A stretch of 32,000 bases of DNA from Tannockella kyphosi (GTDB lineage: Bacteria; Bacillota_I; Bacilli_A; Erysipelotrichales; Coprobacillaceae): NCBI RefSeq assembly GCF_021054785.1, contig NZ_CP088239.1, positions 1,800,001-1,832,000 of the forward strand. Direction: 5' to 3'. Below the pieces are notes generated by a model that saw only the letters and a list, made by a program, of their open reading frames with translations, was not told the origin of the DNA and did no database searches. Made by a program: the position numbers and the translations under genes. Shown in pieces: positions 10,692 to 27,728 of this stretch; the first letter of the stretch is position 1, and each line of letters begins with the position of its first letter.

Positions 10692-11882
<1,191 letters not shown>

Positions 11883-14309: not shown

Positions 14310-14424
14310 CTTTAATTTCCTTTGTTTTAAAAAATAGAAGATGAAATAATTACTACGAATTATACATTCACAGAAATTACACTTTCTTTTATCAAACCTA
14401 TCAGTTGCCTAATTACATTCTTTT

Positions 14425-14782: not shown

Positions 14783-14806
14783 TAATACTAATTAAAATAA
14801 GTGCTA

Positions 14807-14834
14807 AAAGTAGAGTCTATTGACTCTACTTTTT
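14807..14834 (+). terminator. Terminator after the surface-protein remnant
   Basis: AAAAGTAGAGTC tatt GACTCTACTTTT, a perfect 12-bp stem with a T tail. Confidence 0.75.
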
Positions 14835-15009
14835 AAATAGATAATTTGTTCAATTAAAGCAGCATCCTACCCTTTAACTTACTTATTTCTCTTGAATGTC
14901 TTTCTAGTATTAGTTTAATACTCTCTAATGCTTTATTATACAACGTATCCATACTATACAAGTTCATTTTCCTTCTTCTATTATTATTTTGGCTTTAAAA
15001 GATACTGAC

Positions 15010-15202
15010 GTACAGCAATTTCATCAGCATGATTCTTATGAACACCTGTAATTTCTCCTTTATCCTCCACTCCAGAAAACAATCGTCCTCCCTCAGCATT
15101 AGTCATCAAAAGAATAGCTTCAATAAACTCATTATCTTTTAGTTGTTTAACATCCCTTTGATATTTGATTTTTAATAACTACTTGCTAGGTATAATTCAC
15201 AT
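15010..15202 (-). pseudogene. N-terminal remnant of a COG2865 (AlbA_2/Schlafen-type) gene, paralogue of 24995..26641
   Basis: Reads M*IIPSK*LLKIKYQRDVKQLKDNEFIEAILLMTNAEGGRLFSGVEDKGEITGVHKNHADEIAV against the intact MRIIPSKETLKIEFKSDVKELKDNELIEAVLGMANTEGGQLFLGVEDDGVITGVHKKHADEIGV. It has two nonsense codons and is truncated after about 64 codons. Confidence 0.8.
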
Positions 15203-15225
15203 AAAAACACCCACTAAACGCACTC

Positions 15226-15271
15226 TAACGCGCGCGTGTGTTTATTTCAATAATTTTAACGCGCGCGTGTG
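15226..15271 (-). promoter_or_regulatory. Degenerate copy of the (CG)n double-box promoter, upstream of the COG2865 pseudogene
   Basis: TAACGCGCGCGTGTG occurs at 15226..15240 and 15257..15271, offset 31 bp, the same spacing as 26665/26696. On the minus strand TTGAAA, 17 nt, TAGAGT is embedded. Confidence 0.6.
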
Positions 15272-15317
15272 AAAGTGCGCAATGTAAACATTACTTTTAT
15301 AATTACCTATCTCAATT

Positions 15318-15382
15318 CTTTATAAACATCTTTCTATCTCTTTTCTATCACTATTCTCTTTCTATCACTGATAGAATACAAT
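15318..15382 (-). promoter_or_regulatory. Remnant of the tetO-like promoter/5' end of an 18586..19875-type gene
   Basis: Near-identical to 19868..19950, including CTATCACTGATAG (15362..15374) and the ATGTTTA start. An 18-bp deletion lies between two GATAG repeats, and no gene body follows. Confidence 0.65.
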
Positions 15383-15425
15383 TTTTCATTCTTTTTTAAA
15401 ACAAAAAACTCTCCTAAGAAAGTTT
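15383..15425 (-). repeat. R1: truncated array repeat (left flank plus terminator hairpin only); terminator of the ATPase gene
   Basis: tttttcattcttttttaaaacaaaaaACTCTCCTAAGAAAGTT, hairpin 15407..15424. Homology ends 10 nt from the stop of 15435..16637. Confidence 0.75.
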
Positions 15426-15434
15426 CCTGTCTTC

Positions 15435-16637
15435 TTAACATAGCAAGAAATCTACTATATTTTGATGAATAATACCATTTCTACTCATATCAAATTCATC
15501 ATAAGATATTACATACTTTGGATGATTATCTGATATACTTTCTAATACCGAAAACTCATGTTCAACCACTTCTTCACTTGCAAGCAAATATGCTACTTGA
15601 ATATAGATTTTTTCACTTTGTTTTCTAGCAATAAAATCAATTTCTTTCGTTCCATTTTTACCAACCGTAATAGTATATCCTCTACGTAGTAATTCTACAT
15701 ACACAATATTTTCAAACATAAGATTAATATCTTTCCTATTTCCACCAAATACCGCTTCTCTTAATCCCTGATCAACAAGATAATACTTCTCATTGACCGA
15801 TAGAATCTTTTTACCTTGTATATCTTCTCTTTTCACCCTATAAAATAAATAAGCAGATTCACATGCTCTAATATAATTTAAAACTGTTTCTGGAGAAACA
15901 ACTCTCCCTTCATTTTTAAAATATTTTGAAATGTTCGTTGCAGAAAAGGTAGTTCCTATGTTTGTTGTAACATATGCGATAATGCGCTCCAGTAAATCTA
16001 CATCACGAATATTATTTCGTTTTACTACATCTTTTAACACTAGTGCACTATATAAATCTTTAAGATACATCTTACTTGGTTCTACATCAAATTGTAAATT
16101 ACTAAGATACGGCATACCTCCCATAGTTAAGTATTGTTTAAAAATATCATTAGGACTACTATTAGGAAATAGTTTATTGTAACTCATTGCAAACTCTTCT
16201 AAGGAAAAAGGATAAATAACAAATTCAACATAACGCCCTGATAAATAACTTGCAAGTTCACTAGATAGTAACTTTGCATTTGATCCAGTAATATAAATAT
16301 CACAATCAAATTCCACCCTAAAAGAATTAATTGCTTTTTCCCAATCCTTTACTTCCTGTATTTCATCAAAGAATAAATATACTTTATCATTATTATCCAA
16401 AATGAATTCACTTACTTTATCATGCAATGCGCTTGCTGATAAAATATCAGCATGCCTCATATCTTCAAAGTTAAACTCTATAAACTGTTGTTTATTTACG
16501 CCCTGTCTTAATAATTCTTCTTGTATAAGTTTTAACATAACTGACTTCCCACTTCTACGTACACCTGTTAATACTTTTACCAAATCTTTATTTATAAATG
16601 GCCTGATTTTTTTTAAATACTGTTCACGTTCAATCAT
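15435..16637 (-). CDS. AAA+ ATPase of the AAA_14/DUF4143 family (400 aa)
   Basis: Walker A VLTGVRRSGKS, Walker B LFFDEIQE, C-terminal KEIDFIA...YIQV motif. ATG at 16637 follows GAGGTG. The track start at 16670 adds 11 unsupported codons. Confidence 0.85.
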   Translation of the reverse strand: MIEREQYLKKIRPFINKDLVKVLTGVRRSGKSVMLKLIQEELLRQGVNKQQFIEFNFEDMRHADILSASALHDKVSEFILDNNDKVYLFFDEIQEVKDWEKAINSFRVEFDCDIYITGSNAKLLSSELASYLSGRYVEFVIYPFSLEEFAMSYNKLFPNSSPNDIFKQYLTMGGMPYLSNLQFDVEPSKMYLKDLYSALVLKDVVKRNNIRDVDLLERIIAYVTTNIGTTFSATNISKYFKNEGRVVSPETVLNYIRACESAYLFYRVKREDIQGKKILSVNEKYYLVDQGLREAVFGGNRKDINLMFENIVYVELLRRGYTITVGKNGTKEIDFIARKQSEKIYIQVAYLLASEEVVEHEFSVLESISDNHPKYVISYDEFDMSRNGIIHQNIVDFLLC

Positions 16638-16706
16638 TAGAATCACCTCACTAATATTATAGTATACCACTTATATGTTTTATTCAATCAAATATGATAG
16701 TTTTAA

Positions 16707-16758
16707 CAGTTATAACCGTGATAATTGGTATATTTATATATTTTATCAGTTATAACTG
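16707..16758. promoter_or_regulatory. Two CAGTTATAAC(C/T)G palindromes upstream of the ATPase gene
   Basis: CAGTTATAACCG (16707..16718) and the perfect palindrome CAGTTATAACTG (16747..16758), offset 40 bp, lie 70-120 bp upstream of the start. Confidence 0.4.
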
Positions 16759-16887
16759 CTAAAATATATTTATTTCGTTATGCTTTTAGAATTTCAACAA
16801 TAACATTCCTGTCCCTTAAAGTCGTGACAATAAATCAAGTAATCTTATTTGTAATATTCTTTAGCTTCTTCTATAACTTTATTTATA

Positions 16888-17066
16888 AATAAAAAAACTC
16901 TCCTAAGAGAGTTCAAGTTCATGCATAAATCTAACAGTTTGAAGTATTATAACTATCTTTTTGTTATAAATATTCGTTATAAAACAAGAGTTTTTATAGT
17001 GTTTGCATCTTACGAGCATCTTAATCAAATGCACTCAAACAAAGTTTACATCGTATTATGTTCATA
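16888..17066 (-). repeat. R2: full array repeat (subfamily A core; right arm shared with R5)
   Basis: Hairpin AACTCTCCTAAGAGAGTT at 16896..16913, then gttcaagttcatgcataaatctaacagtttgaagtattataactatctttttgtta...tttttatagtgtttgcatcttacgagcatcttaatcaaatgcactc...cgtattatgttcata. It ends 4 nt from the VOC stop codon. Confidence 0.85.
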
Positions 17067-17069
17067 TTT

Positions 17070-17564
17070 TTAATAAGCACCCTTAGAATAAGTCACTTCA
17101 TAGCTATGCGTATAAATTTCGAATACAATACCAAATGGATCTTCAACATAACACATTTTATATGGTTTTTCATTTGGATAGTATTCCTTGATAGGCATAC
17201 GTTGTTTACCACCATGAGATACAATTTTTTCAATCATACCCTCAATATCTGGATCCTGCACAGAAAAATGGAAAAGACCTGTATTTTTGAATTCAAATGG
17301 TTGCGTTTTTTTATCGTTATCCACAAACTCAAATAGTTCTATTCCAATGGCGTTTGAAGTGACCATGTGAGCAATTTTGAAATCTCCATGCCCTTTACCG
17401 AATACTTCCTCGCACATAATTCCGATTGCAGAAGTATTTTCCTCTTTGATAACTGATGGTTCCATTACAACATACCAACCCATTACCTCGCTATAAAACT
17501 TAACCGCCCGTTCTAAATTAGACACAGACAAACCTATGTGTGAAAATGCTCTTGGATAATTCAT
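17070..17564 (-). CDS. VOC-family (glyoxalase/bleomycin-resistance/dioxygenase fold) protein, 164 aa
   Basis: FSHIGLSVSNLERAVKFYSEVMGW... and ...LFHFSVQDPDIEGM...DPFGIVFEIY are the paired beta-alpha-beta-beta-beta module signatures. Confidence 0.75.
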   Translation of the reverse strand: MNYPRAFSHIGLSVSNLERAVKFYSEVMGWYVVMEPSVIKEENTSAIGIMCEEVFGKGHGDFKIAHMVTSNAIGIELFEFVDNDKKTQPFEFKNTGLFHFSVQDPDIEGMIEKIVSHGGKQRMPIKEYYPNEKPYKMCYVEDPFGIVFEIYTHSYEVTYSKGAY

Positions 17565-17638
17565 TTTCGTACCTCCTTTCGAGATACTTTAATAATATAG
17601 TAATATAAAGATTAAGAGAATAACGTACTTTTTTGTAC

Positions 17639-17980
17639 CTATGTATTATCAATCATTATTTCATTTTCACTAGCATATTCTTTTGAAAAATCACAAAATC
17701 CCTCCACAAGAGGAATAAGTCCTTTGTAGCGCGGTGAGAGTGAATATACTACATTAAGTGGTTTCTCACATACCACAGTCCTTACTAATATATTGCTTAA
17801 CTCAAGCTCCTTTAATTGTGTGACAAGCATTTTATGTGTTATATCAGGGATACCTCTTTGCAGTAAAGAAAAACGATTATCTCCATTTAAGATATGCCAC
17901 AAAATCCTCATTTTCCATTTCCCACCTAGCAAATCCATTGATAACAGCAATGCACAAGTGTATTGTTTTTTTATCTTCAT
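17639..17980 (-). CDS. HxlR-family winged-helix transcriptional regulator (113 aa)
   Basis: C..LLSMDLLGGKWKMRILWHIL.G..RF..L.R.IP.IT.KMLVTQLKELE...IV.R is a typical HxlR/MarR-like signature. It lies directly upstream of the VOC gene. Confidence 0.8.
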   Translation of the reverse strand: MKIKKQYTCALLLSMDLLGGKWKMRILWHILNGDNRFSLLQRGIPDITHKMLVTQLKELELSNILVRTVVCEKPLNVVYSLSPRYKGLIPLVEGFCDFSKEYASENEIMIDNT

Positions 17981-18245
17981 CTTACATTCCTTATTATATA
18001 AATTTTAATTGTTCTTACTTTTTTATTAACATATTTTATTGTAAAACAAATACCAACTACAATCAATGTATACAAACCATATATTTGAGTATTAGTATAT
18101 CCTATATAAATCAGTATTGTTATAGTAGTGAATAGACTTATACATACAATATCCTACAAATGCACCATTACAAATATTTTGCATACCGTTCTTGTTTCAT
18201 AACAAATCAGGCTTCATCTAATATAAACACCCTATATATGCAAAT

Positions 18246-18430
18246 TTTATCATACTAGACTTACGCATTCAATGATGGATAACAAATTAAAAACTCTCCT
18301 AAGAGAGTTCAAGTTCATGCATAAATCTAACAGTTTGAAGTATTATAACTATCTTTTTGTTATAAATATTCGTTATAAAACAAGCATTTTTATAGCATTT
18401 GCATATTATGAACAACATAACAACATCGTA
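18246..18430 (-). repeat. R3: full array repeat (subfamily A core; left flank and right arm shared with R6)
   Basis: Left flank ttatcatactagacttacGcattcaatgatggataacaaat, hairpin 18292..18309, core as in R2, arm ...gcatattatgaacaacataacaacatcgtac. Confidence 0.85.
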
Positions 18431-18477
18431 CTAATTACAATAATGGTTATTCAATATTCATTGATTGTTTTATTTTA

Positions 18478-18512
18478 AACGCACGGATAAACGCACGCGT
18501 GCGTTTATCGCA
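18478..18512 (-). promoter_or_regulatory. Orphan CG-box element (promoter-only remnant) containing a 22-bp perfect palindrome
   Basis: AAACGCACGGATAAACGCACGCGTGCGTTTATCGC is colinear with ctAAACGCACtctAACGCGCGCGTGTGTTTAT at 15212..15244. The palindrome ATAAACGCACGCGTGCGTTTAT is at 18487..18508. No downstream gene follows. Confidence 0.5.
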
Positions 18513-18585
18513 TTACTAACATATCTAAACATACATCACTCTTTTTGGTTTGTCAGATCACTAATAAATATTAGAAAAATACTGT

Positions 18586-19875
18586 TTATAACTGATCTGC
18601 TAGCATGTATTTTGTGTTTTTTCCATTTCCTACTTTTACAATAATACCTAGTTTAAGCATTTCACCAATAATACTGTTAGCTCTGGTTACTTTAACATCT
18701 AACAATTCTTCTATTGATAGACGTGTGATATATTTGTTATTTTTTAAATATTCAACTACTAAATTATGTGTTTTTGATAAACCTATTGTGTCATTATTCA
18801 TATTTGGAAGAGTAACTCTAAATGCACCATCTGCATTTTCAAATACTGGTTTATTGATGCATTTATTGTAAGAACTCATTATTTTACCAACACCAATACC
18901 ATAGGATTCAATTAATTGCATTCTATAAAATAATGCTGCTAATTTTTCATTTCTTGCTTGTGATGCACCTAAAAGAATAGCTTCTATCGACATCCCAGAA
19001 ACAAGGCCTCCTAAAGAAACAATCTCAATTTTATTGGAATACACATTAATAAAAGTATCTCCACTATAACTATAATCTCGATGTACGATTGCATTTAATA
19101 ATGCTTCTCTTAATGATAATTCCGGATAATCTTTTTGATCAATTCTTAATAAGCCATCAAATGATGCACTTGTTCTATTATATAACTCAAGTGTAGCATA
19201 TGCATCATTTAATTGTTTAAAAATAGAACCTTTAAATTCTTTTCTATCTATAAAAACACTTTTATCATTGCCTTGAAATACAGCAAGTTTAATAGAATGA
19301 ATACATTCATCTGATGTTAGTAAAGCAAGATTTGTATACATTTCATCATTATTGATAAAACCTAAATTATGCATTTGAACCTGACCAAACTCTAGGTTCC
19401 TTTTTTTCATTTCTTCATTCATTGTATTGAAATGTAAATTTTGTTCAATAGAACGACTATTCTCAAAAGAATCTCCATCTGTTAATTTTATCATCTGGCG
19501 AATTGCATCTTGTGATGCAGGAGCAGAAGATGTCCCTTGTCTAACGTAGACACCTGATGATTTCATTCCCTTATCTTTAAGATAATAAGGTTTTCTTGTT
19601 CCCTCTTCAACAGTTACTTTGATGATATCTTTATTTTCTTCTACTAGTGATTCCACACGTATAAACATCATAGCATCAGGTAAGATATTATCACGAAGAA
19701 GATTCGTTATCGCTAACATAACTTCATCAACATCATTTATTCCAACCACTTCACCACTATCAGCAATTCCTTCATATATTGTTCCACCATCACAGTTAAT
19801 AAATGCAATGACTTCTTTCTTCAAATCTTGTGTATATTTTTCTTTTAACTCTACTTTATAACCCTCTTTAAACAT
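18586..19875 (-). CDS. COG2865-type protein: AlbA_2 (Schlafen-like) N-domain + HATPase_c_4 + C-terminal wHTH (429 aa), paralogue 1
   Basis: N-terminus EGYKVELKEK...NCDGGTIYEGI, central LREALLNAIVHRDYS, C-terminus ITRLSIEELLDVKVTRANSIIGEMLKLGII. RBS AAAGGAG. Confidence 0.8.
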   Translation of the reverse strand: MFKEGYKVELKEKYTQDLKKEVIAFINCDGGTIYEGIADSGEVVGINDVDEVMLAITNLLRDNILPDAMMFIRVESLVEENKDIIKVTVEEGTRKPYYLKDKGMKSSGVYVRQGTSSAPASQDAIRQMIKLTDGDSFENSRSIEQNLHFNTMNEEMKKRNLEFGQVQMHNLGFINNDEMYTNLALLTSDECIHSIKLAVFQGNDKSVFIDRKEFKGSIFKQLNDAYATLELYNRTSASFDGLLRIDQKDYPELSLREALLNAIVHRDYSYSGDTFINVYSNKIEIVSLGGLVSGMSIEAILLGASQARNEKLAALFYRMQLIESYGIGVGKIMSSYNKCINKPVFENADGAFRVTLPNMNNDTIGLSKTHNLVVEYLKNNKYITRLSIEELLDVKVTRANSIIGEMLKLGIIVKVGNGKNTKYMLADQL

Positions 19876-19879
19876 CTTT

Positions 19880-19945
19880 CTATCTCCTTTCTATCACTAT
19901 TCTCTTTCTATCACTGATAGTATCATGTTTTGTGATAGAATACAA
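19880..19945 (-). promoter_or_regulatory. Promoter of paralogue 1 with a tetO-like palindrome and reiterated GATAGAAAG half-sites
   Basis: Minus strand: TTGTAT (19945..19940), 17 nt, TACTAT (19922..19917). The palindrome CTATCACTGATAG (19908..19920) overlaps the -10 element. Further half-sites lie at 19932..19938, 19891..19897 and 19880..19884. Confidence 0.55.
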
Positions 19946-19960
19946 CTTTTTATATAAAAT

Positions 19961-20127
19961 TATCCCCTTTTCATTCTTTTTTAAAACAAAAAACTCTCCT
20001 AAGAGAGTTTAAGTTTATGCATAAATCCAACTGTTTGGAGTATTATAATTATCTTTTTGTTAATGACTAAAGTACATAAAATAAGAGTTTTTATAGTGTT
20101 TGCATCTTATAAGTATCCTAACTATAG
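19961..20127 (-). repeat. R4: full array repeat (subfamily B core; arm shared with R0)
   Basis: Flank tatccccttttcattcttttttaaaac, hairpin 19992..20009, core gtttaagtttatgcataaatccaactgtttggagtattataattatctttttgttaat..., arm gcatcttataagtatcctaactatag. Confidence 0.85.
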
Positions 20128-20224
20128 TCATACAACAATAGTGCTTTTTTACTAGCACATACTGATATAACACGTAATCTTGAGTATATCACCCAAAAAT
20201 GAAGACTAAAAATAGTTAATCCAT

Positions 20225-21670
20225 TTAGCTATAATACTTCTGTGATTTACTCTTAGGTTTTTCCGGTAATGTCATTTTAAGATTTCCACTTTCTATCAAT
20301 GGTAAAACAATTGTATTCATTGCATAATACTGTGTTTTGCCTAAATACTTAGCTAACTCAGATCTTGTTCTCGGTGTTTTACAAAATTCAATAAGTTCTT
20401 CAACCTCGTTTACCTCTGTTTTTCCACTATTAGATATTTTGAGTTTAGACATGACACTATTCTTTAGAATCACAGTAAATGTTCCTCGTCTATTAACAAA
20501 TTCAGGAGGACAAAGACTCATTTTTTCCATTTCATAGTGAATAGTCGGAATACCAGAATATCTATTTTCTGCTGCTTTTTGTACCTCCAGTATATGGGTC
20601 AATGTTTGGTTTCTTGTATCTGCATGAGCCTTTCCTAAACCATCAACAGTAATTCTACCGTAAAGACCTCCTTCATTTGTAATTTCAAGTCGATCACTAT
20701 ACATTACAATTCTTATAGGTGCCCCTTCTGTATGAATACTATAATCTCTATGCATTAGAGCATTTAATATAGCTTCCCTGACTGCTTTAATCGGGTATTC
20801 TGGTTTATCATGTCGTTTTCCTTCATCATCAATAATTGTTTTTTCTCTCATGTTTCTTTTTACAAAAGCAACAGCTTCTTCTAACATTTCAGCGATAGTA
20901 CCCTCTATTCTCTTATTAGAAATAAATCGCTCTCCTTCATCTCCTGTCTGACCCATGATAGTTCCAGGAACAACTACTGCAGTGATGCAGAGTTGTGGAT
21001 AAGTAGCTTGTGGATATTTTGAAAAACACATTATCCCTGAAAAGGTTGGATTTCCACCCTTTATCACTCCCATTAAATGAAGGATTTCATCGTTTGAAAG
21101 CCTTGAAACATTAGGTTTATTTTCTTTTATATTTAGAATATACTTTTCAAGTAATATATCATCTAGTATAGAAAAATCAGTAGAATCAGCAATTCTAATA
21201 TCATCCTTAATTCTTCTATGATATGCATCATAGCTGTAAATTTCATAATCACTCATAGGTTCATCTGCTTCTGCCACACGAATATATGAACCTTTAACCT
21301 TACCTGCACCTTTATAGTAAACAGGTCTATCTGCAATGTCTACTCCAGGAATTTCAGCTGAAACAACCATCTTATTTTCAATCATTGCAACTGTAAATAG
21401 TGGCCTAACTGCAATTTCCATTTGTTTGCATTGTTCAGCAACTTTATGTTGTAAATCTTGAGGATCGTAGACACCAACTATTTCAAAATCCTTTTTCTCA
21501 TCTAATCCAAATAGGATAGTACCTCCACCATCTTGGTTTGAGAAACTTGAAAGTGTATCATATAATTTTGTGAGTGTTCTCTTTTGAACTGCTTTCACTT
21601 CAATATACTGCGTTTCACAATTATATTTTTGAATAGTTTTTACCAAACTAACTAAATCATCTATTTGCAT
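20225..21670 (-). CDS. COG2865-type protein (AlbA_2 + HATPase_c_4 + wHTH, 481 aa), paralogue 2
   Basis: ETQYIEVKA...NQDGGGTILFGL, VREAILNALMHRDYS, C-terminal RTRSELAKYLGKTQYYAMNTIVLPLIESGNL. RBS AGGAGGG. Confidence 0.8.
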   Translation of the reverse strand: MQIDDLVSLVKTIQKYNCETQYIEVKAVQKRTLTKLYDTLSSFSNQDGGGTILFGLDEKKDFEIVGVYDPQDLQHKVAEQCKQMEIAVRPLFTVAMIENKMVVSAEIPGVDIADRPVYYKGAGKVKGSYIRVAEADEPMSDYEIYSYDAYHRRIKDDIRIADSTDFSILDDILLEKYILNIKENKPNVSRLSNDEILHLMGVIKGGNPTFSGIMCFSKYPQATYPQLCITAVVVPGTIMGQTGDEGERFISNKRIEGTIAEMLEEAVAFVKRNMREKTIIDDEGKRHDKPEYPIKAVREAILNALMHRDYSIHTEGAPIRIVMYSDRLEITNEGGLYGRITVDGLGKAHADTRNQTLTHILEVQKAAENRYSGIPTIHYEMEKMSLCPPEFVNRRGTFTVILKNSVMSKLKISNSGKTEVNEVEELIEFCKTPRTRSELAKYLGKTQYYAMNTIVLPLIESGNLKMTLPEKPKSKSQKYYS

Positions 21671-21731
21671 AATACAACCCTCCTAAGTATATTTACTTAT
21701 AATATGCTATTTTAAACAAAATTATTCAATA

Positions 21732-21807
21732 AAATAAACAAAATTATCTATATAAATTTTGTTTATTTATAATTTTAATCTAATTTTACTTATTATTTTG
21801 TTTATTT
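21732..21807. promoter_or_regulatory. AAATAAACAAAATT inverted repeat plus a third half-site upstream of paralogue 2
   Basis: AAATAAACAAAATT (21732..21745), 9 nt, AATTTTGTTTATTT (21755..21768), a perfect 14-bp inverted repeat. A further ATTTTGTTTATTT lies at 21795..21807. Confidence 0.4.
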
Positions 21808-21914
21808 CTGATATTTTTAAAGTATTTTTCTTTATTTTTTCTTTACATAATTTTCTATCACAATTTTCTTTCTACCATTACAGAATACATCTTCCGCTAT
21901 ATATAATTCTTCTT

Positions 21915-22130
21915 TTATCCCTATTTGTTCATTTTAAAACAAAAAAAGAACTCTCCTAAGAAAGTTCAAGTTTATGCATAAATCCAACTGTTTGGAGTAT
22001 TATAATTATCTTTTTGTTAATATATATCCTTTATGAAATAATGTTTTTATAGATCCTTGCATCTTATAAGCATCTTAATCAAATGCACTCAGACAAGTTA
22101 AATACTAGTTTACTACGTATTATGCTCATA
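21915..22130 (-). repeat. R5: full array repeat (subfamily B core; right arm shared with R2)
   Basis: Flank ttatccctatttgttcattttaaaac, hairpin 21948..21967 (GAACTCTCCTAAGAAAGTTC), arm gcatcttataagcatcttaatcaaatgcactcagacaag...cgtattatgctcata. It ends about 12 nt from the stop at 22142. Confidence 0.85.
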
Positions 22131-22141
22131 CTCCTCAGCAC

Positions 22142-22651
22142 CTATGATTTTTTGCGAGTTAGAATTATACCAACAATCGACCCAATTAATGCAATTGGTG
22201 CAATTCTTACAAATAACCATTCAATGCCGTGTAAAATTGTTCCTGCAACAGCTAAATCAGGCTTACTATAATTCCATCCCAAATAAGAACTATCTAAGAA
22301 ATATAAAATCACAAAAATTGCTACAATAATTGCACACACCGAAATAAATATCCAGTGAACTAGTTTTCTGCTTCTTACACTTTTTTGTGACAACTGTAAG
22401 TTAATAACCTCTAATTTTTCTGAAATTACTTTGAGATCACCTTCTCTTTCTTCTGCTATAGTTTCACCAAACATTGTGCTTACTGGAATTTCAAGAACTT
22501 CTGACATAGTTACTAACGTTTCAGAATCTGGAACTGATAATCCTTTTTCCCATTTTGAAATAGTTTGTCGTACGACATTCAACTTAATAGCAAGTTCTTC
22601 TTGTGAAAGTCCTTTTGATTTTCTAATAGTTTTAATATTTTCACTTAGCAT
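22142..22651 (-). CDS. XRE-family HTH protein with C-terminal transmembrane segments (169 aa)
   Basis: MLSENIKTIRKSKGLSQEELAIKLNVVRQTISKWEKG (HTH_3). Hydrophobic segments WIFISVCAIIVAIFVILYF and IAPIALIGSIVGIIL. ATG at 22651 follows AAGGAGG. The track start at 22726 is unsupported. Confidence 0.8.
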   Translation of the reverse strand: MLSENIKTIRKSKGLSQEELAIKLNVVRQTISKWEKGLSVPDSETLVTMSEVLEIPVSTMFGETIAEEREGDLKVISEKLEVINLQLSQKSVRSRKLVHWIFISVCAIIVAIFVILYFLDSSYLGWNYSKPDLAVAGTILHGIEWLFVRIAPIALIGSIVGIILTRKKS

Positions 22652-22799
22652 AACAAATACCTCCTTTGTTTGTACTTTGATTTTAGCAGATATTTGCCCG
22701 TTGCCACAAGCAACGCATATTAACATTCACCATAATAGGCATAAAGGGTATATAAATAATCTTTAGTTAATTATAACATTCTTTTCGTTTATGACAAAC

Positions 22800-23816
22800 T
22801 CACTTAGTACCTATCGTCTTTTCTAATTCTAACAAGTTATATTCTTTATGAAGTTCTCTTCTTAATTCTTCTTCACTAGGTAAGTATAGTTTATATCTAG
22901 ATGCATATACGTTACTATTTTTAGGTAACGTATATTTTACTAAGCTTTCACTTTTATCCACGCATAACACAATACCAATAGGTGGATTATCTTCTTTACT
23001 ACTTACTTTTTCTTCATAGTAGTTTACATACATTTGCATTTGTCCTAAGTCTTGGTGCGTTAAGTCCCCTATTTTTAAATCAATAATAACAAAACACTTT
23101 AATAAATAATTATAGAATAATAAGTCAATATAAAAATGTCTCCCATCAAAGGTAATTCTTTTTTGTCTTGCTATAAAAGAGAAACCTCTTCCTAATTCTA
23201 ATAAGAATTTTTGTAAATGAGAAATTAAAGCACTTTCTAATTCTTTTTCACTAAAAGATGCCTGATCAGGAAGTCCTAGAAACTCTAATACATAAGGATC
23301 TTTAATAATATCACTTGGTGATTTTAATAATTCATCTTCATCTGACAAGTTATCTTTCATAGTTTTCCCATCTTTACTAGATAATAACCTTTCATAATAA
23401 AAGGAGTGAATTTGTCTTTCTAGTTGCCTAGTACTCCAGTTAGAATTTACACATTCTTCTTCATAAAAATTTCTAGCTTTTTCATTTTCCACTCTCATTA
23501 ACAAACGATAATGAGTCCAACTCAATTCGCCACGCAGTGCGTGGCTTTTTGAAAAAGTTAAATAAAATTGTCTCATATCTTTGAGGCTAGAAACCTTAAA
23601 CCCTGTTCCAAACTCTGCAGACAACTCTTTTGATATAGTTTTAATTAAATCACTCCCATACTCTGCTTTTTCCTTTCCGCCTTGTTTTTCTACTATCGTT
23701 CTACCAATTTCATAATATGCTTGTACCATAGTATTATTAGTTACTTGATATACTTTATCTCTAGCTTGATAGACAATATTTCTTATATCATTTACTATTT
23801 CTTTTTCTAATTCCAT
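22800..23816 (-). CDS. DUF1016/YhcG-family PD-(D/E)xK nuclease-like protein (about 338 aa)
   Basis: The N-terminal part QAYYEIGRTIVE...GK...YG..LI..LS..L matches the YhcG N-domain. C-terminus IDLLFYNYLLKCFVIIDLKIGDLTHQDLGQMQMYVNYY carries D...D-x-K. ATG at 23816 has RBS AGAGGAAA. An alternative start lies at 23852. Confidence 0.75.
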   Translation of the reverse strand: MELEKEIVNDIRNIVYQARDKVYQVTNNTMVQAYYEIGRTIVEKQGGKEKAEYGSDLIKTISKELSAEFGTGFKVSSLKDMRQFYLTFSKSHALRGELSWTHYRLLMRVENEKARNFYEEECVNSNWSTRQLERQIHSFYYERLLSSKDGKTMKDNLSDEDELLKSPSDIIKDPYVLEFLGLPDQASFSEKELESALISHLQKFLLELGRGFSFIARQKRITFDGRHFYIDLLFYNYLLKCFVIIDLKIGDLTHQDLGQMQMYVNYYEEKVSSKEDNPPIGIVLCVDKSESLVKYTLPKNSNVYASRYKLYLPSEEELRRELHKEYNLLELEKTIGTK

Positions 23817-24177
23817 TACTAGTTTCCTCTTTTCTTTTGTTCTTTTCATCATATTATTTAATTACTTTCTCATTAAGTTATACGTATTTTACTAAACAAT
23901 TACTTTTAAATAATAAAAAGCCTTTCTTCTAACTTCATAATATTGTGAAGTAGTTAATAGACTTTTTACTGAAATTCTTATTTAATTGTTTGAAAAATGA
24001 GTAAATCTATGTATTTATATAAAAACCCCTTTTTTATAGTTTATTTAGTTCCTGAATTTTGTACGATAAGGACCAAAAATAGCTTAAAATTGTGTTTGTT
24101 TTAGTACAAAAAGATAACTTTTCGTTCAAAAGGAAAATTATGTTGATTATATCTATGCAATTTGTTTCGGCCTATTA

Positions 24178-24346
24178 TTATACAACTTCTACCAATCTCA
24201 CCTTAGCATCAGGATCATCGTTGTAAGGTATTACTGCCTTGACGTGTTCTTCTACTTCCCTATTCTTATTGTACTACTACTGCTAAATAAGTTATCATCG
24301 TCACATCTCATAGTTTTTATTTAAGTATCTTTTTTGTTTTCATCAT
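24178..24346 (-). pseudogene. Frameshifted remnant of a small secreted/lipoprotein-like gene
   Basis: A strong RBS AGGAGGAATT precedes ATGATGAAAACAAAAAAGATACTTAAATAA, only 9 codons. Downstream frames continue as ...MRCDDDNLFSSSSTIRIGK and EVEEHVKAVIPYNDDPDAKVRLVEVV*. Confidence 0.3.
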
Positions 24347-24409
24347 AATTCCTCCTAAATAGCGATATGTTTGTTCTCTGTTTTTAGAACTTACTAGTTA
24401 GAAAGTATC

Positions 24410-24436
24410 AAAAAAGACTAGAAATTAATCTAGTCT
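24410..24436 (-). terminator. Terminator of the small membrane protein gene
   Basis: Minus strand: AGACTAGA ttaatt TCTAGTCT followed by TTTTTT, about 35 nt after the stop at 24470. Confidence 0.7.
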
Positions 24437-24469
24437 AATCCACAGGGTATGCTAATATTTTTTATATTC

Positions 24470-24718
24470 TCAATGATTAACTAATTGAATAATTCCTGCT
24501 ATAACATTTAAACTAGCAGCTATTAAAAATAATGATTTCATATATATATTTTTCCCTGTAATTTTATCGTTAAAGAACATAAATATAATAAGTACCGATA
24601 GACATAAAGGATTTAATCCAGGAATCATATTTCCAGTTATTACATAAATCACAGAAAGAGCTATTACTATTACACTAAAAACAATAGTACTAATGTCCAA
24701 AATTTTATCTTTTTTCAT
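24470..24718 (-). CDS. Small membrane protein (82 aa, three predicted TM segments)
   Basis: MKKDKILDISTIVFSVIVIALSVIYVI..., ...LCLSVLIIFMFF..., ...LFLIAASLNVIAGIIQL. ATG at 24718 follows GAGGTG. Confidence 0.6.
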   Translation of the reverse strand: MKKDKILDISTIVFSVIVIALSVIYVITGNMIPGLNPLCLSVLIIFMFFNDKITGKNIYMKSLFLIAASLNVIAGIIQLVNH

Positions 24719-24752
24719 TGTTTCACACCTCACAAAATATAAAAAGCAAATC

Positions 24753-24942
24753 TTATCATACTAGACTTACTCATTCAATGATGGATAACAAATAAAAAAG
24801 AACTCTCCTAAGAAAGTTCAAGTTTATGCATAAATCCAACTGTTTGGAGTATTATAATTATCTTTTTGTTAATAACTAAAGTATATAAAATAAAAGTTTT
24901 TATAGAGTTTGCATCTTACGTGCAACATAACCACAGACATAC
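24753..24942 (-). repeat. R6: full array repeat (subfamily B core; left flank and right arm shared with R3)
   Basis: Flank ttatcatactagacttacTcattcaatgatggataacaaat, hairpin 24800..24819, arm gcatcttacgtgcaacataaccacagacatac. Confidence 0.85.
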
Positions 24943-24994
24943 AATGACGCCATGTATAATAGTGATTTTGTTGTTCTTAAAATAGTTATCTCCC

Positions 24995-26641
24995 CTATTT
25001 TAATTCATATCTCGATGAGTTTCCTTTTCTAATCAACTCTAGTTTCCCACTTTTTACAAGGTTTTTCAATATTCGGTACGCTTGATCTTTAGTTACTCCT
25101 AGTAATTCTACTACATTATTACGAGTAACATATTTTTGCTGTTTAGCAAGTTTCAGTACTAATTCATCATATTTTAAACGATCAATACCTGTCTGCCTTA
25201 CATAACCCACAACATTATCTTGAGCTTTATACACTTTTACACTTAGCATGTAAACCCTTGATTTACCAGTTCCATTCGCTTCCACAAGTCCACTCTCTAT
25301 TAATTTTTCAATATTTGATTTTGTTCTAGATTCACTAATATGCATAGTATCAGACAATTCTTGTATTGAAACTCTTTTTTGACTTTGTAATGTTGACAAA
25401 ATCAATAAAGAATTGATTGGGAGCATTCTTCCAATTCTATTCTCTTCATTAGACAACATCTTAGCAAATGCCAGGTCTGGATCAGCTCTTTGTACAAATA
25501 ACTTTACATAGCTACTTGTCGACTCTGAATAATCAGGAAATGGACGTCCATAAACGATAGACCCTTCATATATACGATCTATCCCTCGACCAGTTCGTTC
25601 TGCTAACCCTATTCTTTTCATTGCATCTGCCAAAGCATGATTTCGACCGTGTGGTTCAACTGTTAATAAATTATGTAAGTTAACCCCTTCAATAAATCCT
25701 CCTGGACTACTTATTGTTAATCCCTCATCTTCTATTGCTAATCGCACCCTTTGTAATATTGAGTAATCTCTATGACAAAATGCGTTTACTAAACCTTCCC
25801 TAAATGCTGATTCTGAAAACTCTGGAATTGGTATCCTAAATAATCCCGATTCCATTTCACGCTCTGGATTCCATGCCTTTAAGTAGTTTTCAAATATTTC
25901 AAACGTTGCTAGTAAAGGTTTTGAAAACTGTTCATTTACCCTAACTTGTGTTCCTTCAAGAACTTGAAAACTTGATTTTGCAGTAGGCATCAACTCTTCC
26001 AGCCTATCTTCTTTTCCTATCAATAACATGCCTGTTACTGTTGGATATGTTACACCATTTTCTTCTTTAGTTATTCTTAAAGCTTTATCTAAGTCTTCGT
26101 CTGTCAATTCAAGAAGCAATTTGTCCCCTTTTCGCATCTTAATAATGTTTCTAAGTCGCACTCTCTCATTTGGATTTAAATCATTCACTGAGGCATCTGT
26201 AATTATTTGTGCTGAAAAATCCAACAAGCTAAGCTGAGATAAACGTGTATTTATCTCATGTGGATACATTGGTATATTTTCAGGCGAACCATCCAACTTT
26301 AGTCTTCTTCGAAGAATTTTCCCTTCGCTAGAAGCTACAATCGTTCTACTCATAGGTATATCAATCCTTAAAACTTGTTTTCCTTCTTCGATAATTATTT
26401 CCGCTTTAGAAGATACAGACGGAACAGTTTTATTAGCAATTAATGCTACTACACCAATTTCATCAGCATGTTTTTTATGCACACCTGTAATTACTCCGTC
26501 ATCCTCAACACCCAAAAATAATTGTCCCCCCTCGGTATTCGCCATTCCAAGAACAGCTTCAATAAGCTCATTATCTTTTAGTTCTTTAACATCACTTTTA
26601 AATTCAATTTTTAATGTTTCTTTGCTGGGTATAATTCTCAT
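24995..26641 (-). CDS. COG2865-type protein (AlbA_2 + HATPase_c_4 + two C-terminal wHTH, 548 aa), paralogue 3
   Basis: SKETLKIEFKSDV...NTEGGQLFLGV, FREGLVNAFCHRDYS, wHTH-like SIQELSDTMHISESRTKSNIEKLIESGLV and VTRNNVVELLGVTKDQAYRILKNLVKSGKL. ATG at 26641 follows GGAGGTG. The track start at 26689 lies inside the promoter. Confidence 0.85.
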   Translation of the reverse strand: MRIIPSKETLKIEFKSDVKELKDNELIEAVLGMANTEGGQLFLGVEDDGVITGVHKKHADEIGVVALIANKTVPSVSSKAEIIIEEGKQVLRIDIPMSRTIVASSEGKILRRRLKLDGSPENIPMYPHEINTRLSQLSLLDFSAQIITDASVNDLNPNERVRLRNIIKMRKGDKLLLELTDEDLDKALRITKEENGVTYPTVTGMLLIGKEDRLEELMPTAKSSFQVLEGTQVRVNEQFSKPLLATFEIFENYLKAWNPEREMESGLFRIPIPEFSESAFREGLVNAFCHRDYSILQRVRLAIEDEGLTISSPGGFIEGVNLHNLLTVEPHGRNHALADAMKRIGLAERTGRGIDRIYEGSIVYGRPFPDYSESTSSYVKLFVQRADPDLAFAKMLSNEENRIGRMLPINSLLILSTLQSQKRVSIQELSDTMHISESRTKSNIEKLIESGLVEANGTGKSRVYMLSVKVYKAQDNVVGYVRQTGIDRLKYDELVLKLAKQQKYVTRNNVVELLGVTKDQAYRILKNLVKSGKLELIRKGNSSRYELK

Positions 26642-26660
26642 AAAAACACCTCCTAAACGC

Positions 26661-26710
26661 ATTATATCGCGCGCGCGCTTTAATTTCAATAGTTTTATCG
26701 CGCGCGCGCG
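26661..26710 (-). promoter_or_regulatory. Consensus sigma-A-type promoter whose spacer and upstream flank are (CG)n boxes
   Basis: Minus strand: TTGAAA (26689..26684), 17-nt spacer ttaaaGCGCGCGCGCGa, TATAAT (26666..26661). Plus-strand direct repeats TATCGCGCGCGCGC (26665..26678) and TATCGCGCGCGCGCG (26696..26710) are offset by 31 bp. Confidence 0.65.
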
Positions 26711-26790
26711 AAAGAACGCGTAACATCTTCATTTTTTACTTTATATTTATCAATATAATTTAGCACTCCTAAGATGTTATTCATTCTATT

Positions 26791-26895
26791 TATCCCCTTT
26801 TATTTTTTCTTTAAAACAAAAAAAGAACTCTCCTAAGAGAGTTCAAGTTTATGCATAAATCCAACTGTTCGAAAAAATAATAATTATCTTTTTGA
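26791..26895 (-). repeat. R7: native rpsI stop codon, 3' UTR and rho-independent terminator; prototype of the array repeat
   Basis: tatccccttttattttttctttaaaac, hairpin GAACTCTCCTAAGAGAGTTC (26825..26844), then aagtttatgcataaatccaactgtt, identical to R4-R6. ataattatctttttGAGAAC includes the rpsI stop (26884..26886) and its last codons (FSKR*). Confidence 0.85.
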
Positions 26896-27282
26896 GAACT
26901 GTGGTGCACGTCTTGCTGCTTTAAGTCCGTATTTTTTACGTTCTTTAGCACGAGCATCACGAGTAAGGAATCCAGCTGCTTTTAATGTTGGTCTATAATC
27001 ATCTCCAGCTTGTAATAAAGCTCTTGAGATACCATGACGGATTGCACCAGCTTGACCTGTGTATCCTCCACCATATACATTAACACTAACATCAAATTTT
27101 TCACCTGTGTTAGTTAATTCTAAAGGTTGATTTACGATCATTAATAAAACATCTGATGATAAATAATCTTTAGCAGTTTTACCGTTAATAACGATATTAC
27201 CAGTACCTGGAGTTAAGATTACTCTAGCTACTGATGATTTTCTACGTCCAGTACCTCTGTATTGTACATTTGCCATTGTCAT
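26884..27282 (-). CDS. rpsI: 30S ribosomal protein S9
   Basis: ...[16 protein letters not shown]...[18 protein letters not shown]...[27 protein letters not shown] is unmistakably S9. The start may be the second ATG at 27276. Confidence 0.95.
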
Positions 27283-27290: not shown

Positions 27291-27728
27291 TTACCCTTTA
27301 AATTTCATTTCTTCTGGTTGTTGTGCTGCATGAGGATGAGTACTTCCTGCATATACATGAAGTTTCATTCCTTGTTTTCTTCCTAATGTGTTATGAGGTA
27401 ACATACCTTTAACAGCTGCTTCCACAAATCCTGTAGGATCTTTTTCTTGGAAAGTTCTAGCAGTTTTAACTTTTAAACCACCTAACCATCCAGAGTGACG
27501 GTAATATTTTACACTATCTAATTTTTTACCAGTCATTACTACTTTTTCAGCATTAATGATAATCACGTTATCTCCTGTATCTACATGTGGTGTAAATGTA
27601 GGTTTATGTTTACCTCTTAATACTACGGCAACTTCTGAAGCTAAACGACCTAAAGTTAAGTCAGTAGCATCAATTACGTACCATTTTCTTTCAATTGTGG
27701 CTTCATTAGCCATTGTTGTTTGTCTCAT
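27291..27728 (-). CDS. rplM: 50S ribosomal protein L13
   Basis: [62 protein letters not shown] matches the Bacillus L13 N-terminus almost residue for residue. Confidence 0.95.

Follow-up and report, generated by a model that had tools for sequence, protein, structure and literature searches.

A probable accretion array of small integrase-less cassettes at the 3' end of rpsI in Tannockella kyphosi

The window, a 32-kb stretch of contig NZ_CP088239.1 from the gut Erysipelotrichales bacterium Tannockella kyphosi, contains the ribosomal protein genes rplM and rpsI and, 3' of rpsI, seven co-oriented repeats (R1-R7). A repeat search located these at 15383-15425, 16853-17039, 18249-18435, 19949-20135, 21906-22092, 24758-24944 and 26783-26869, and blastn with one repeat unit against the whole window matched seven places only, all behind rpsI, in agreement with a preliminary description made from the sequence alone. 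From R1 to R7 the spacings are 1489, 1396, 1700, 1957, 2852 and 2025 bp; five of the six had been given correctly, and 1957 had been given as 1956. Each interval holds one to three ORFs, all on the minus strand, as described before. The array is a candidate series of six to seven small cassettes with mostly candidate anti-phage genes, and its cargo is rich in toxin-antitoxin and defence-type genes.

Alignment of R1-R7 defines the repeat core and resolves the internal repeats R2-R6 into two parts. The T module (~75 nt) consists of the final 10-11 nt of rpsI (its last two to three codons), the stop codon, the 3' UTR and the terminator. The P arm (~90 nt) is common to R2-R6, has no homology to rpsI and is cassette-specific. 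Identity to the native rpsI end starts at CAAAAAGATAA and runs through the UTR and hairpin, giving ~85 nt of homology per unit. The earlier view of R2-R6 as copies of the rpsI end is correct for these ~85 nt, but not for the further ~90 nt that make up the arm. R7 is indeed the genuine rpsI end, but R1, previously counted among the copies of the unit, consists only of the hairpin and its downstream sequence, without pseudo-stop or arm. The features, from the rpsI side to the left end, are as follows.

27291-27728, minus strand: rplM (ribosomal protein L13), an ORF whose exact-protein match carries Pfam Ribosomal_L13
26884-27282, minus strand: rpsI (ribosomal protein S9), last codons QFSKR*, 83-93% identical to rpsI of Erysipelotrichales/Coprobacillaceae genomes; true start probably at 27276
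26810-26898, minus strand: R7, attL-like junction and genuine rpsI end, with stop codon (26884-26886), 3' UTR, hairpin (26825-26844) and T-run
26890-26898, minus strand: putative crossover region TTCTCAAAA in R7, from comparison of junctions
24859-26883, minus strand: cassette 6, with T module, promoter bracketed by CGCGCGCG boxes, 564-aa protein and P arm (24859-24950)
24995-26689, minus strand: cassette 6 cargo, a 564-aa SLFN_AlbA_2 + HATPase_c_4 + winged-HTH protein
24790-24950, minus strand: R6 junction, with P arm (TAAGATGC at 24911-24918), UTR, hairpin (24800-24819) and T-run
ending at 24858, minus strand: R6 pseudo rpsI end, AACAAAAAGATAA
22007-24858, minus strand: cassette 5, with a P arm at its end
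24470-24733, minus strand: cassette 5, 87-aa membrane protein with its own terminator (24415-24436)
22800-23852, minus strand: cassette 5, YhcG/DUF1016 PD-(D/E)XK nuclease (PADLOC PDC-S02)
22142-22726, minus strand: cassette 5, HTH_3 membrane protein
21938-22098, minus strand: R5 junction, with TAAGATGC at 22059-22066 and 22070-22077, pseudo-stop ending at 22006 and hairpin (21948-21967)
20050-22006, minus strand: cassette 4, 481-aa SLFN_AlbA_2 + HATPase_c_4 protein (20225-21670)
19981-20140, minus strand: R4 junction, with P arm (TAAGATGC at 20102-20109), pseudo-stop ending at 20049 and hairpin (19991-20010)
18350-20049, minus strand: cassette 3, 429-aa SLFN_AlbA_2 + HATPase_c_4 protein (18586-19875) and tetO-like palindrome (19907-19921)
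18281-18440, minus strand: R3 junction, with degenerate P arm (TAATATGCA at 18400-18408), pseudo-stop ending at 18349 and hairpin (18291-18310)
16954-18349, minus strand: cassette 2, HxlR-type regulator (17639-17980) and glyoxalase-fold protein (17070-17564)
16885-17045, minus strand: R2 junction, with TAAGATGC at 17005-17012 and 17016-17023, pseudo-stop ending at 16953 and hairpin (16895-16914)
15426-16953, minus strand: cassette 1, AAA_14 + DUF4143 ATPase (15435-16670; PADLOC PDC-S01), without P arm or pseudo-stop
15383-15425, minus strand: R1, terminator hairpin (15406-15425) and T-run only
14967-15382, minus strand: decayed cassette 0, with tetO-like palindrome (15361-15375) and promoter (15229-15267) flanked by CGCGCGCG boxes
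14967-15280, minus strand: cassette 0, N-terminal AlbA_2 gene fragment, 81-86% identical to 26378-26719

In cassette 1, the missing P arm and pseudo-stop and a stop codon only 9 nt from the R1 hairpin point to a deletion. For cassette 4, the sole public copy is a 1.7-kb contig whose assembly stops at the repeats. Decay is visible at the left end of the array (R1, the AlbA_2 fragment and an IS3 fragment).

The P arm carries two direct 8-mers, TAAGATGC, 11 nt apart. Both copies are located in R2 and R5, and one each in R4 and R6. TAAGATGC occurs seven times in the window (1.18 expected), with six occurrences inside arms. The hairpin GAACTCTCTTAGGAGAGTTC followed by a T-run is present on the minus strand in all seven repeats, and a terminator scan called six of the seven hairpins terminator-like (13 such sites, 2.7 expected). 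A separate promoter for each interval, as proposed earlier, is plausible; a promoter scan did not exceed shuffled sequence (70 found, 71.7 expected), and one 11/12 sigma-70-like match (26689-26661) falls at the 5' end of the 564-aa ORF when that ORF is taken from its listed TTG start. The 32-kb window encodes no tyrosine or serine recombinase at all, which widens the same observation made before for 12-27 kb.

The array had been called integron-like. In a true integron or CALIN-type array, an IntI-type integrase would recombine promoterless cassettes, bounded by attC sites, in folded single-stranded form; this reading is close to refuted. It has a superficial resemblance on its side (co-oriented cassettes of one to three genes, toxin-antitoxin and defence-type cargo, a hairpin at each junction), but that hairpin is an ordinary 8-bp intrinsic terminator and the only one in the junction, RNAalifold found 0 conserved pairs across the junction arm, and there is no IntI in the window. 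Moreover, the site overlaps a protein-coding 3' end, and its arm has direct repeats of the arm type seen in lambda-like attP sites. The likeness to integrons is therefore functional only, since their defining features, attC hairpins and IntI, are absent.

Comparison of the rplM-rpsI downstream locus across genomes and metagenomes revealed that cassette presence and order vary among relatives. Four loci from Coprobacillaceae/Erysipelotrichaceae (L004, L008, L068 and L070) have the same architecture behind their own rpsI, each with a species-specific terminator, as do 28 of the 30 metagenome contigs that a search with the arm pattern retrieved. The window's own core repeat has no match in the genome, metagenome or viral collections, where its organism is represented by two short contigs from one sample, and the evidence for polymorphism comes from the relatives' loci rather than from the window's array. 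L068 and L070 are 99.2% identical in rplM-rpsI and differ in their first cassettes. A 1.6-kb DUF3990 cassette is bounded at the crossover in different arrays and species; its L008 and L068 copies are 86.7% identical, against only 66.9% for rplM-rpsI, and its order relative to the YhcG cassette in L083 is the reverse of that in L008 and L093. To the right of one PTS cassette, at least three different neighbours occur. In the relatives, cassettes thus vary even between near-identical strains, change their order and have crossed between species.

At 41 distinct junctions the switch points lie at -19 to -6, counted from the final base of the stop codon. Taken over about 45 junctions, the comparison places the crossover within the 9 nt of TTCTCAAAA, where rpsI encodes Phe-Ser-Lys. 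Which last codon and stop a junction has (CGTTAG, CGTTAA, AGATAA or CGATAA) goes with the type of terminator on its right-hand side, arm-specific sequence extends to about GTAGTT at junctions, and the sequence contributed by an IME at a secondary site begins at AAAACGTTAA. Under this comparative model, the part of R7 beyond the crossover would belong to cassette 6.

Could terminator-bearing REP/MITE-like or duplication-prone repeats have built the array by homologous recombination, gene replacement and tandem duplication, without a dedicated site-specific recombinase? At 85-170 nt the direct repeats are long, several cassettes are mosaics with common 5' regions, and some boundaries in the relatives are off the crossover: L068 and L070 share about 23-27 nt past the stop codon, with divergence setting in at 21-27 nt, L008 has a 296-nt duplication that runs into the next gene, and a PTS segment in L087 lacks the left T module. 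Homologous and illegitimate recombination have therefore also shaped these arrays. As a full explanation we regard it as quite improbable: the unit is not dispersed, all its window copies being behind rpsI; at other loci with a long enough flank, a pseudo rpsI end comes after the P arm match; the switch points cluster within 9 nt; and the arms carry lineage-specific direct 8-mers. In the relatives' lineage, IMEs at this rpsI site also have that lineage's 8-mer, TATGCAAC, next to their integrase gene.

Three tyrosine-integrase families target the 3' end of rpsI, where tandem accretions that include decayed elements are frequent (PMC5357655); the earlier suggestion that streptococcal ICEs and IMEs with tyrosine recombinases use this site was correct. 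All cases linking arms to a recombinase come from the relatives' TATGCAAC lineage rather than from that of the window. Integrase genes directly adjoin rpsI in L041 and L076, and L113-L118 have an IME at rpsI with four TATG(C/T)AAC motifs between terminator and integrase gene. L119 is an IME with an intact tyrosine integrase (P0107), a Mob_Pre (MobV) relaxase and an AAA_25 Rep protein, and its end matches the mini-cassettes' P arm and pseudo rpsI end (nhmmer E = 1.7e-14); such a full-size element also has TATGCAAC repeated near its integrase gene. Integrase remnants lie within arrays in L099 and L102, and no integrase is present at the array-bearing loci L004, L008, L068 and L070. In architecture the P arm of the window is like the IME-linked arm, but in sequence the similarity is only weak; with a profile built without window sequences, its arms scored E = 0.005 and 0.018, while a shuffled control reached 0.0075.

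The cassettes might also be inert fossils of repeated full-size IME integrations, whose integrase, relaxase and replication genes were deleted in situ and which never moved as mini-units. A three-step route to CIME accretions is already published (PMC5704250), truncated or internally deleted integrases of the rpsI-specific family are abundant, some 220 nt of IME P' region persist in type-B cassettes, and the window array's left end is visibly decayed. We nevertheless consider this account unlikely. No window cassette retains any IME backbone remnant, and sharply bounded T and P modules are common to unrelated cargoes. The spread of the DUF3990 cassette with crossover boundaries, and its permutation with the YhcG cassette, cannot result from in-situ decay. 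The account fits the origin of the cassettes but not their distribution.

In our preferred reading, which we hold to be probable, at least six integrase-less CIME-like cassettes (1.4-2.9 kb) have accreted as an array at an rpsI 3' att site, moved in trans by an rpsI-specific tyrosine integrase. Serial site-specific insertion had been proposed before, and it gains support from the relatives' architecture, the 9-nt switch region, cassette polymorphism and the arm-sharing IMEs; the other option then raised, a mechanism not yet described, is not needed. In the direction of rpsI, a cassette runs from the T module through its own putative promoter and its cargo to the ~90-nt P arm. The T module would re-terminate whatever stands upstream, and the two direct 8-mers of the P arm would serve as arm-type sites. 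Closing a cassette into a circle would bring P arm, crossover and T module together as an attP of ~180 nt. Strand exchange within TTCTCAAAA would be the work of a tyrosine integrase from the rpsI-specific IME family, so that every integration would rebuild rpsI and add one junction. The window's TAAGATGC cassettes presumably rely on a cognate integrase whose gene lies outside the window and may still be mobile, and cassettes may arise from IMEs by internal deletion. Because each would be bounded by a copy of an rpsI-element att site, the array would be a Gram-positive functional analogue of an integron with its recombinase elsewhere.

CIMEs (PMC6323972, PMC5704250) likewise have flanking att sites but no integrase or transfer genes, and site-specific recombination stacks them beside integrase-bearing IMEs. 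Those at streptococcal rpsI, like the IMEs there, share the target gene end, the tyrosine integrase and long direct repeats that include the gene end. The units here differ in being small, with one to three genes in 1.4-2.9 kb against 5-18 kb for streptococcal IMEs (PMC5357655), in standing six to seven in a row, all co-oriented, and in having standardised T and P modules across unrelated cargoes. Mini-unit recurrence across species and permuted order in the relatives suggest propagation as cassettes rather than isolated decay products. A literature search found no paper on such arrays in Erysipelotrichales.

Sedentary chromosomal integrons (see also PMC8618304) similarly stack small co-oriented cassettes without their own recombinase on a chromosomal platform via one recombination site, with cargo dominated by toxin-antitoxin and anti-phage genes. 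The rpsI array, in contrast, has no intI, attI or Pc promoter, its junctions are not attC hairpins, and its cassettes seem to come with promoters and terminators of their own. Here the 3' end of an essential gene serves as platform, and a mobile element, not the platform, would supply the recombinase. SCC and pseudo-SCC islands at the 3' end of staphylococcal rlmH (orfX) and the Enterococcus cassette chromosome also form tandem arrays at a conserved gene's 3' end, with repeated integration-site borders and some units that lack a recombinase and are served in trans. Unlike the rpsI array, SCC uses large serine recombinases (Ccr), units of 3-60 kb and short direct repeats, and has no arm-type sites. 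In tandem tRNA/tmRNA islands (see Islander, PMC4383910, and the Dehalococcoides ssrA islands, PMC3146451), too, the incoming element regenerates the target gene 3' end and displaced gene-end fragments mark inter-island borders; such islands are much larger and normally carry their own integrase. At rpsI, by contrast, the target is protein-coding and the repeated block includes its terminator.

Seven co-oriented copies of the repeat, R1 to R7, stand behind rpsI on the minus strand, as the preliminary description had it. The repeat search and a blastn search with one full unit agree on this number, and the latter returned nothing of note in the window beyond the seven array copies. Start-to-start spacings are 1489, 1396, 1700, 1957, 2852, and 2025 nt in the repeat search. 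Furthest right is R7, the native rpsI end (rpsI: 26884-27282, minus strand), with the following make-up:

R7, minus strand: QFSKR codons, stop codon, 3' UTR, 8-bp hairpin GAACTCTCTTAGGAGAGTTC, T-run

Terminator-like calls were obtained for six of the repeat hairpins (13 such sites in the scan, 2.7 expected), and every interval between neighbouring copies contains one to three minus-strand ORFs, in line with the earlier gene reading. R2 to R6 had also been described as repeating the rpsI end. Alignment of R1-R7 bears this out for only part of the unit: identity to the native rpsI end starts at CAAAAAGATAA and spans about 75-85 nt through the terminator, a segment that we call the T module. A further ~90 nt upstream, the P arm, is common to R2-R6 but has no similarity to the rpsI coding sequence. 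R1 consists of the hairpin and downstream sequence only; its P arm is missing.

The P arm has TAAGATGC twice in direct orientation, with a distance of 11 nt; in R3, R4, and R6 these 8-mers are degenerate. TAAGATGC occurs seven times in the window (1.18 expected), with six of the seven inside arms, and TAAGATGCA, with one mismatch allowed, shows no enrichment outside the arms (19 matches, 13 expected). Arm-type motifs were also sought on the P' side of the window cassettes, with no match. RNAalifold analysis of ten junctions from four lineages yielded no conserved pairs in the arm, an Rfam scan of the window gave no match, and the sole stem at the window junctions is the 8-bp terminator. This lack of conserved structure and of an Rfam match suggests that the arm is a cluster of protein-binding sites rather than an attC-like hairpin or RNA.

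The array, described as integron-like at first, is not an integron: no IntI-clade recombinase with attI and Pc lies beside it, rpsI and rplM occupying the place where intI would stand, and the junctions do not fold in the manner of attC. We also rejected a hairpin transposon of the IS200/IS605 type, an IS110/bridge-RNA element, a group II intron aimed at the terminator, and Xer/dif modules (IMEX, pdif): no HUH, DEDD, or reverse transcriptase gene is present, each junction has a single hairpin, and the exchange point mapped below is in coding sequence, with lambda-like arm repeats. A dispersed REP/MITE-type repeat, which the preliminary description had named as a finding that would count against it, is at odds with the distribution of the unit. 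The window has seven copies only, all of them in the array, the 33-nt core repeat pattern has no match in the genome, metagenome, and viral collections searched, and related arms always precede a pseudo rpsI end where the flanks permit this to be seen.

The cargo of the window cassettes is varied. Three proteins contain SLFN_AlbA_2 and HATPase_c_4 domains (Pfam). An AAA_14 + DUF4143 ATPase and a YhcG/DUF1016 nuclease fall into the PADLOC classes PDC-S01 and PDC-S02, respectively, and are phage-defence candidates; the nuclease shares its cassette with an HTH-membrane protein and a small membrane protein. Another pair comprises an HxlR regulator and a glyoxalase-fold enzyme. Pfam and PADLOC annotation of every cassette ORF revealed no recombinase, relaxase, or coupling protein, and phmmer with XerD or an HMM made from five integrases found no tyrosine recombinase in the 32-kb window. 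The original remark that no recombinase is in view extends, for tyrosine and serine recombinases, to the entire 32 kb.

The S9 protein of the window is 83-93% identical to Erysipelotrichales/Coprobacillaceae sequences and close to Thomasclavelia and Catenibacterium. Exact-protein look-ups gave no match for rpsI (both possible starts) or the glyoxalase; those of rplM and the 481-aa AlbA_2 protein returned only a 2-kb and a 1.7-kb contig from one sample, sequenced in run SRR27046595, both of which end at repeats. The nearest genome representative (L001, 93% S9 identity) has an ordinary terminator and no array behind rpsI, and shares no gene downstream of rpsI with the left flank of the window. 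Comparing the rpsI end with its own downstream DNA revealed repeated rpsI ends at four other loci of relatives (L004, L008, L068, L070), each set copying the terminator of its own species. The layout is that of the window: upstream of each repeated pseudo rpsI end (TTCTCAAAACGTTAA/G) there is an arm with two direct 8-mers 11-12 nt apart, located ~45-50 nt ahead of the pseudo-end. The 8-mer differs by lineage, being TAAGATGC in the window, AAGATACA/AATATACA in L004, and (A/T)ATGCAAC in L008, L068, and L070. A metagenome scan for the last pattern yielded 30 contigs, mainly from the human gut, of which 28 were confirmed by an arm profile; there were no matches to the L008-type arm pattern among viral contigs. 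The relatives' loci and metagenome contigs together provide about 45 junctions.

These junctions allow the crossover point to be mapped. The variant of the last codon and stop (CGTTAG, CGTTAA, AGATAA, or CGATAA) always goes with the terminator type at its right (~45 junctions), and the arm-specific sequence extends to about GTAGTT. We then compared all pairs of 41 distinct junctions, numbering positions relative to the last base of the stop codon. In pairs with the same arm and different right sides, the first mismatch lies between -19 and -6; in pairs with the same right side and different arms, identity continues leftward to between -10 and -17. Where an IME of the same family occupies a secondary site beside parA, the IME-derived sequence starts at AAAACGTTAA. 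Taken together, the codon and stop variants, the switch points of the pairs, and the secondary-site IME place the exchange inside TTCTCAAAA, the 9 nt of the Phe-Ser-Lys codons of rpsI. This 9-nt segment falls within the last five rpsI codons, and the stop variant moves with the element. An exchange at this position means that a cassette, read in the direction of rpsI, consists of T module, cargo, and P arm. Each cassette supplies the terminator of the preceding unit, and the cassette first in line rebuilds the last codons of rpsI.

Cassette content varies between close relatives. The rplM-rpsI regions of L068 and L070 are 99.2% identical, but their first cassettes differ, with DUF3990/DUF3791 in one and AAA_14/DUF4143 with a different terminator in the other. 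The DUF3990 cassettes of L008 and L068 are 86.7% identical over 1637 nt, from the rpsI-end sequence to the arm, compared with only 66.9% identity for rplM-rpsI. The DUF3990 and YhcG cassettes of L083 are in the opposite order to those of L008 and L093, and an 8-kb PTS/6-phospho-beta-glucosidase unit has at least three different next neighbours among contigs. Other cargo in relatives includes AbiH, AbiEi/AbiEii, Abi_2, RhuM/Fic, McrBC-like, PBECR4, and SUKH-type genes, as well as HxlR with alcohol dehydrogenase genes.

Some boundaries are more complex. L008 contains a 296-nt direct duplication (6825-7120 and 9638-9933), also present in L093. The duplicated segment begins 17 nt ahead of the rpsI stop and reaches codon 29 of the TauE-like gene that follows; in the first copy, it continues in frame into a YhcG gene truncated at its 5' end. 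One crossover in TTCTCAAAA is insufficient to produce this arrangement, and an extra duplication or deletion step is needed. Several boundaries in relatives show that homologous and illegitimate recombination are at work as well. L084 carries an integrase element (oriented 4081-5277) right after the T-run of an array junction and is otherwise 99.95% identical to L083. We rejected this integrase as the recombinase of the system: it is Tn916-like (Integrase_DNA domain), unrelated, and probably inserted after the T-run. Array terminators may also be targets of elements that seek AT-rich or T-run sequences.

Tyrosine integrases adjoin rpsI directly at two loci (L041, L076), and a Holdemanella IME downstream of rpsI (L012) encodes an integrase 48% identical to that of L041. 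The rpsI-linked integrase family comprises 1538 proteins at E <= 1e-30. In the lineage with the 8-mer TATGCAAC, the arm 8-mer recurs beside the integrase gene. C-terminal integrase remnants, 66% identical to the L012 integrase, lie inside TATGCAAC-type arrays in L099 and L102. Three TATGCAAC motifs are located just past the terminator in L099 and L106, adjoining the integrase remnant in L099, and are absent from L102. In L113-L118 the order is rplM, rpsI, terminator, four TATG(C/T)AAC motifs (spacings of 11, 11, and 33 nt), PBECR4, and an internally deleted integrase, which is followed by a Mob_Pre relaxase, an AAA_25 Rep protein, and defence genes. The key locus is L119, an IME that encodes a relaxase and a Rep protein and whose integrase is intact (P0107, 91% identical to the L099 remnant). 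At its end stands the same P arm as on the mini-cassettes, followed by TTCTCAAAACGTTAA and a terminator (nhmmer E = 1.7e-14); in the TATGCAAC lineage, both att halves of a family of integrase-bearing IMEs are thus present on the mini-cassettes. One type of cassette in relatives, type B, keeps ~220 nt of the IME P' region. This remnant points to an origin of the cassettes from IMEs by internal deletion, the classical CIME route. A P-arm profile made without window sequences matches the window arms weakly, so we claim the same architecture, and not sequence homology, for the window arm and the IME arm.

Matches to the integrase C-terminus in public proteins are mostly short ORFs of 58-175 aa, and an internally deleted 164-aa integrase (P0002) is found next to rpsI in at least 23 contigs. 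Truncated forms seem to be unexpectedly frequent in the rpsI-linked family, which may reflect decay or a search artefact favouring similar lengths. In L120-L123, the same IME family (integrase P0111, Mob_Pre, AAA_25) occupies a secondary site beside parA/parB, on a contig that also encodes a SpaA-domain protein and a group II intron-type reverse transcriptase. This contig may be a plasmid or an ICE acting as an alternative target or a vehicle.

The 3' end of rpsI is a target of three tyrosine-integrase families of streptococcal IMEs and ICEs and often carries accretions that include decayed elements (PMC5357655); the preliminary description was right on the streptococcal targeting. CIMEs are flanked by att sites but have no genes for integration or transfer (PMC6323972, PMC5704250). 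The window cassettes have ICE/IME-type att flanks, a true or pseudo rpsI end with the T module on one side and the P arm with a pseudo end on the other, and they contain no integrase, excisionase, conjugation, or mobilization genes. As regards the link of these flanks to an IME, L119 shares its P arm with the cassettes of relatives, while the window arm type shares the architecture only. At the sequence level, the window units fit the CIME definition. Their predicted excision and transfer by means of a cognate ICE/IME has indirect support in the permuted order of cassettes in relatives and in the sharing of cassettes between species. Insertion in the rpsI 3' end with a gene end regenerated by the element is as in IME_rpsI elements, but the integrase and relaxase/oriT of such elements are found in L012, L113-L118, and L119 and not in the window cassettes. 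Without integrase or relaxase, the window units are not IMEs. We class them as integrase-less CIME-type cassettes, forming an integron-like array at an rpsI att site.

Compared with described CIME accretions, the window units are smaller (one to three genes in 1.4-2.9 kb) and stacked six or seven deep in one orientation. Moreover, the T and P modules have sharp boundaries and are common to cassettes of unrelated cargo, and the mini-units of relatives recur, permute, and spread between species. Full-text literature searches, of partial coverage, found no account from Erysipelotrichales and no rpsI-anchored cassette array.

In the mechanism that we propose, an rpsI-specific tyrosine integrase of the IME family, whose gene would lie on an IME or elsewhere beyond the window, would bind the 8-mers of the arm and swap strands in TTCTCAAAA. 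Circular cassettes would insert at rpsI or at any internal junction, and recombination between two junctions would lead to cassette excision or reshuffling. Transfer from cell to cell would occur on a helper IME/ICE (cis-mobilisation) or by other gene-transfer routes. Serial att-site insertion, or a cassette array, served by a recombinase encoded elsewhere had been proposed from the start, and it gains support from the crossover window, the cassette variation in relatives, and the TATGCAAC-lineage IMEs. These three points and the junction anatomy are established; we infer that a cognate integrase for the TAAGATGC arm exists and that the window array is mobile today. The weak points are that the window arm is alike in design but only marginally alike in sequence to the IME-linked arm, that R1 is armless, and that homologous and illegitimate recombination also shape several boundaries in relatives.

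We put at slightly below even the chance of a broader reading, in which gut Coprobacillaceae and Erysipelotrichaceae practise true cassette exchange at the rpsI stop, with small defence, toxin-antitoxin, and metabolic cassettes excised, shuffled, and spread between species in trans by a tyrosine integrase encoded on an IME. On this reading, every cassette would carry a standard two-part att module, ~180 bp long, in which the terminator module is combined with an arm bearing a pair of 8-mer sites. Gram-positive bacteria would then have a counterpart of the chromosomal integron that works by double-strand recombination, and the arrays would be more than a graveyard of decayed IMEs. If cassettes do move in trans, they would constitute a compact, predictable gene-capture platform in abundant human-gut Firmicutes: a bank of defence and accessory genes tied to an essential ribosomal gene by a 9-nt crossover and lineage-specific arm sites. 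Such exchange would account for the breaking of assemblies of these genomes at rpsI, make candidate anti-phage genes minable as whatever stands between T module and P arm, and widen the CIME concept from occasional decay products to standardised cassettes. For poorly tractable gut Erysipelotrichales, a simple integrase/att pair would become available as a tool of site-specific engineering. Should the array be only an accretion fossil, it is still a clear example of a known process in a new clade.

The flanks of the array contain the following features:

8267-10473: MazG-like + 626-aa P-loop NTPase pair, left of R1
11404-11853: IS3-family transposase fragment
12206-13576, plus strand: second PDC-S01 AAA_14/DUF4143 gene, left of R1
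13836-14309: DUF6161 protein, left of R1
29097-30680, plus strand: IS1182-like transposase, 527 aa

The region left of R1 (8267-15382), which starts at the R1 end with an AlbA_2 N-terminal remnant, resembles a scrambled extension of the array, or a defence island. Further left, an HTH-DUF3990 gene and its partner (236-1593, minus strand) encode proteins with ~65% identity to the rpsI-cassette pair of L008, L068, and L083; neither a T module nor a P arm is present at this pair. On the other side, the IS1182-like transposase separates the lipoprotein/rplM-rpsI block from a ThiF-like gene (31099-31782). It is absent from relatives such as L004 and L113, where ThiF, hydrolase, rplM, and rpsI are present.

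Two further motifs occur in 5' regions of cassette genes. The tetO-like, near-perfect palindrome TCTATCACTGATAGA is found in those of the AlbA_2 cassettes at 15361-15375 and 19907-19921 and, in weaker form, at 20292-20306 (three matches, 0.33 expected); a TetR-type repressor encoded outside the cassettes may use it as an operator. The -35/-10 promoter elements of the 564-aa AlbA_2-wHTH gene (26668-26710) lie between CGCGCGCG boxes, as do those of its truncated paralogue (15229-15267). There are seven matches, against 0.01 expected, in AT-rich surroundings, and the boxes may be autoregulatory or Z-DNA-prone sites.
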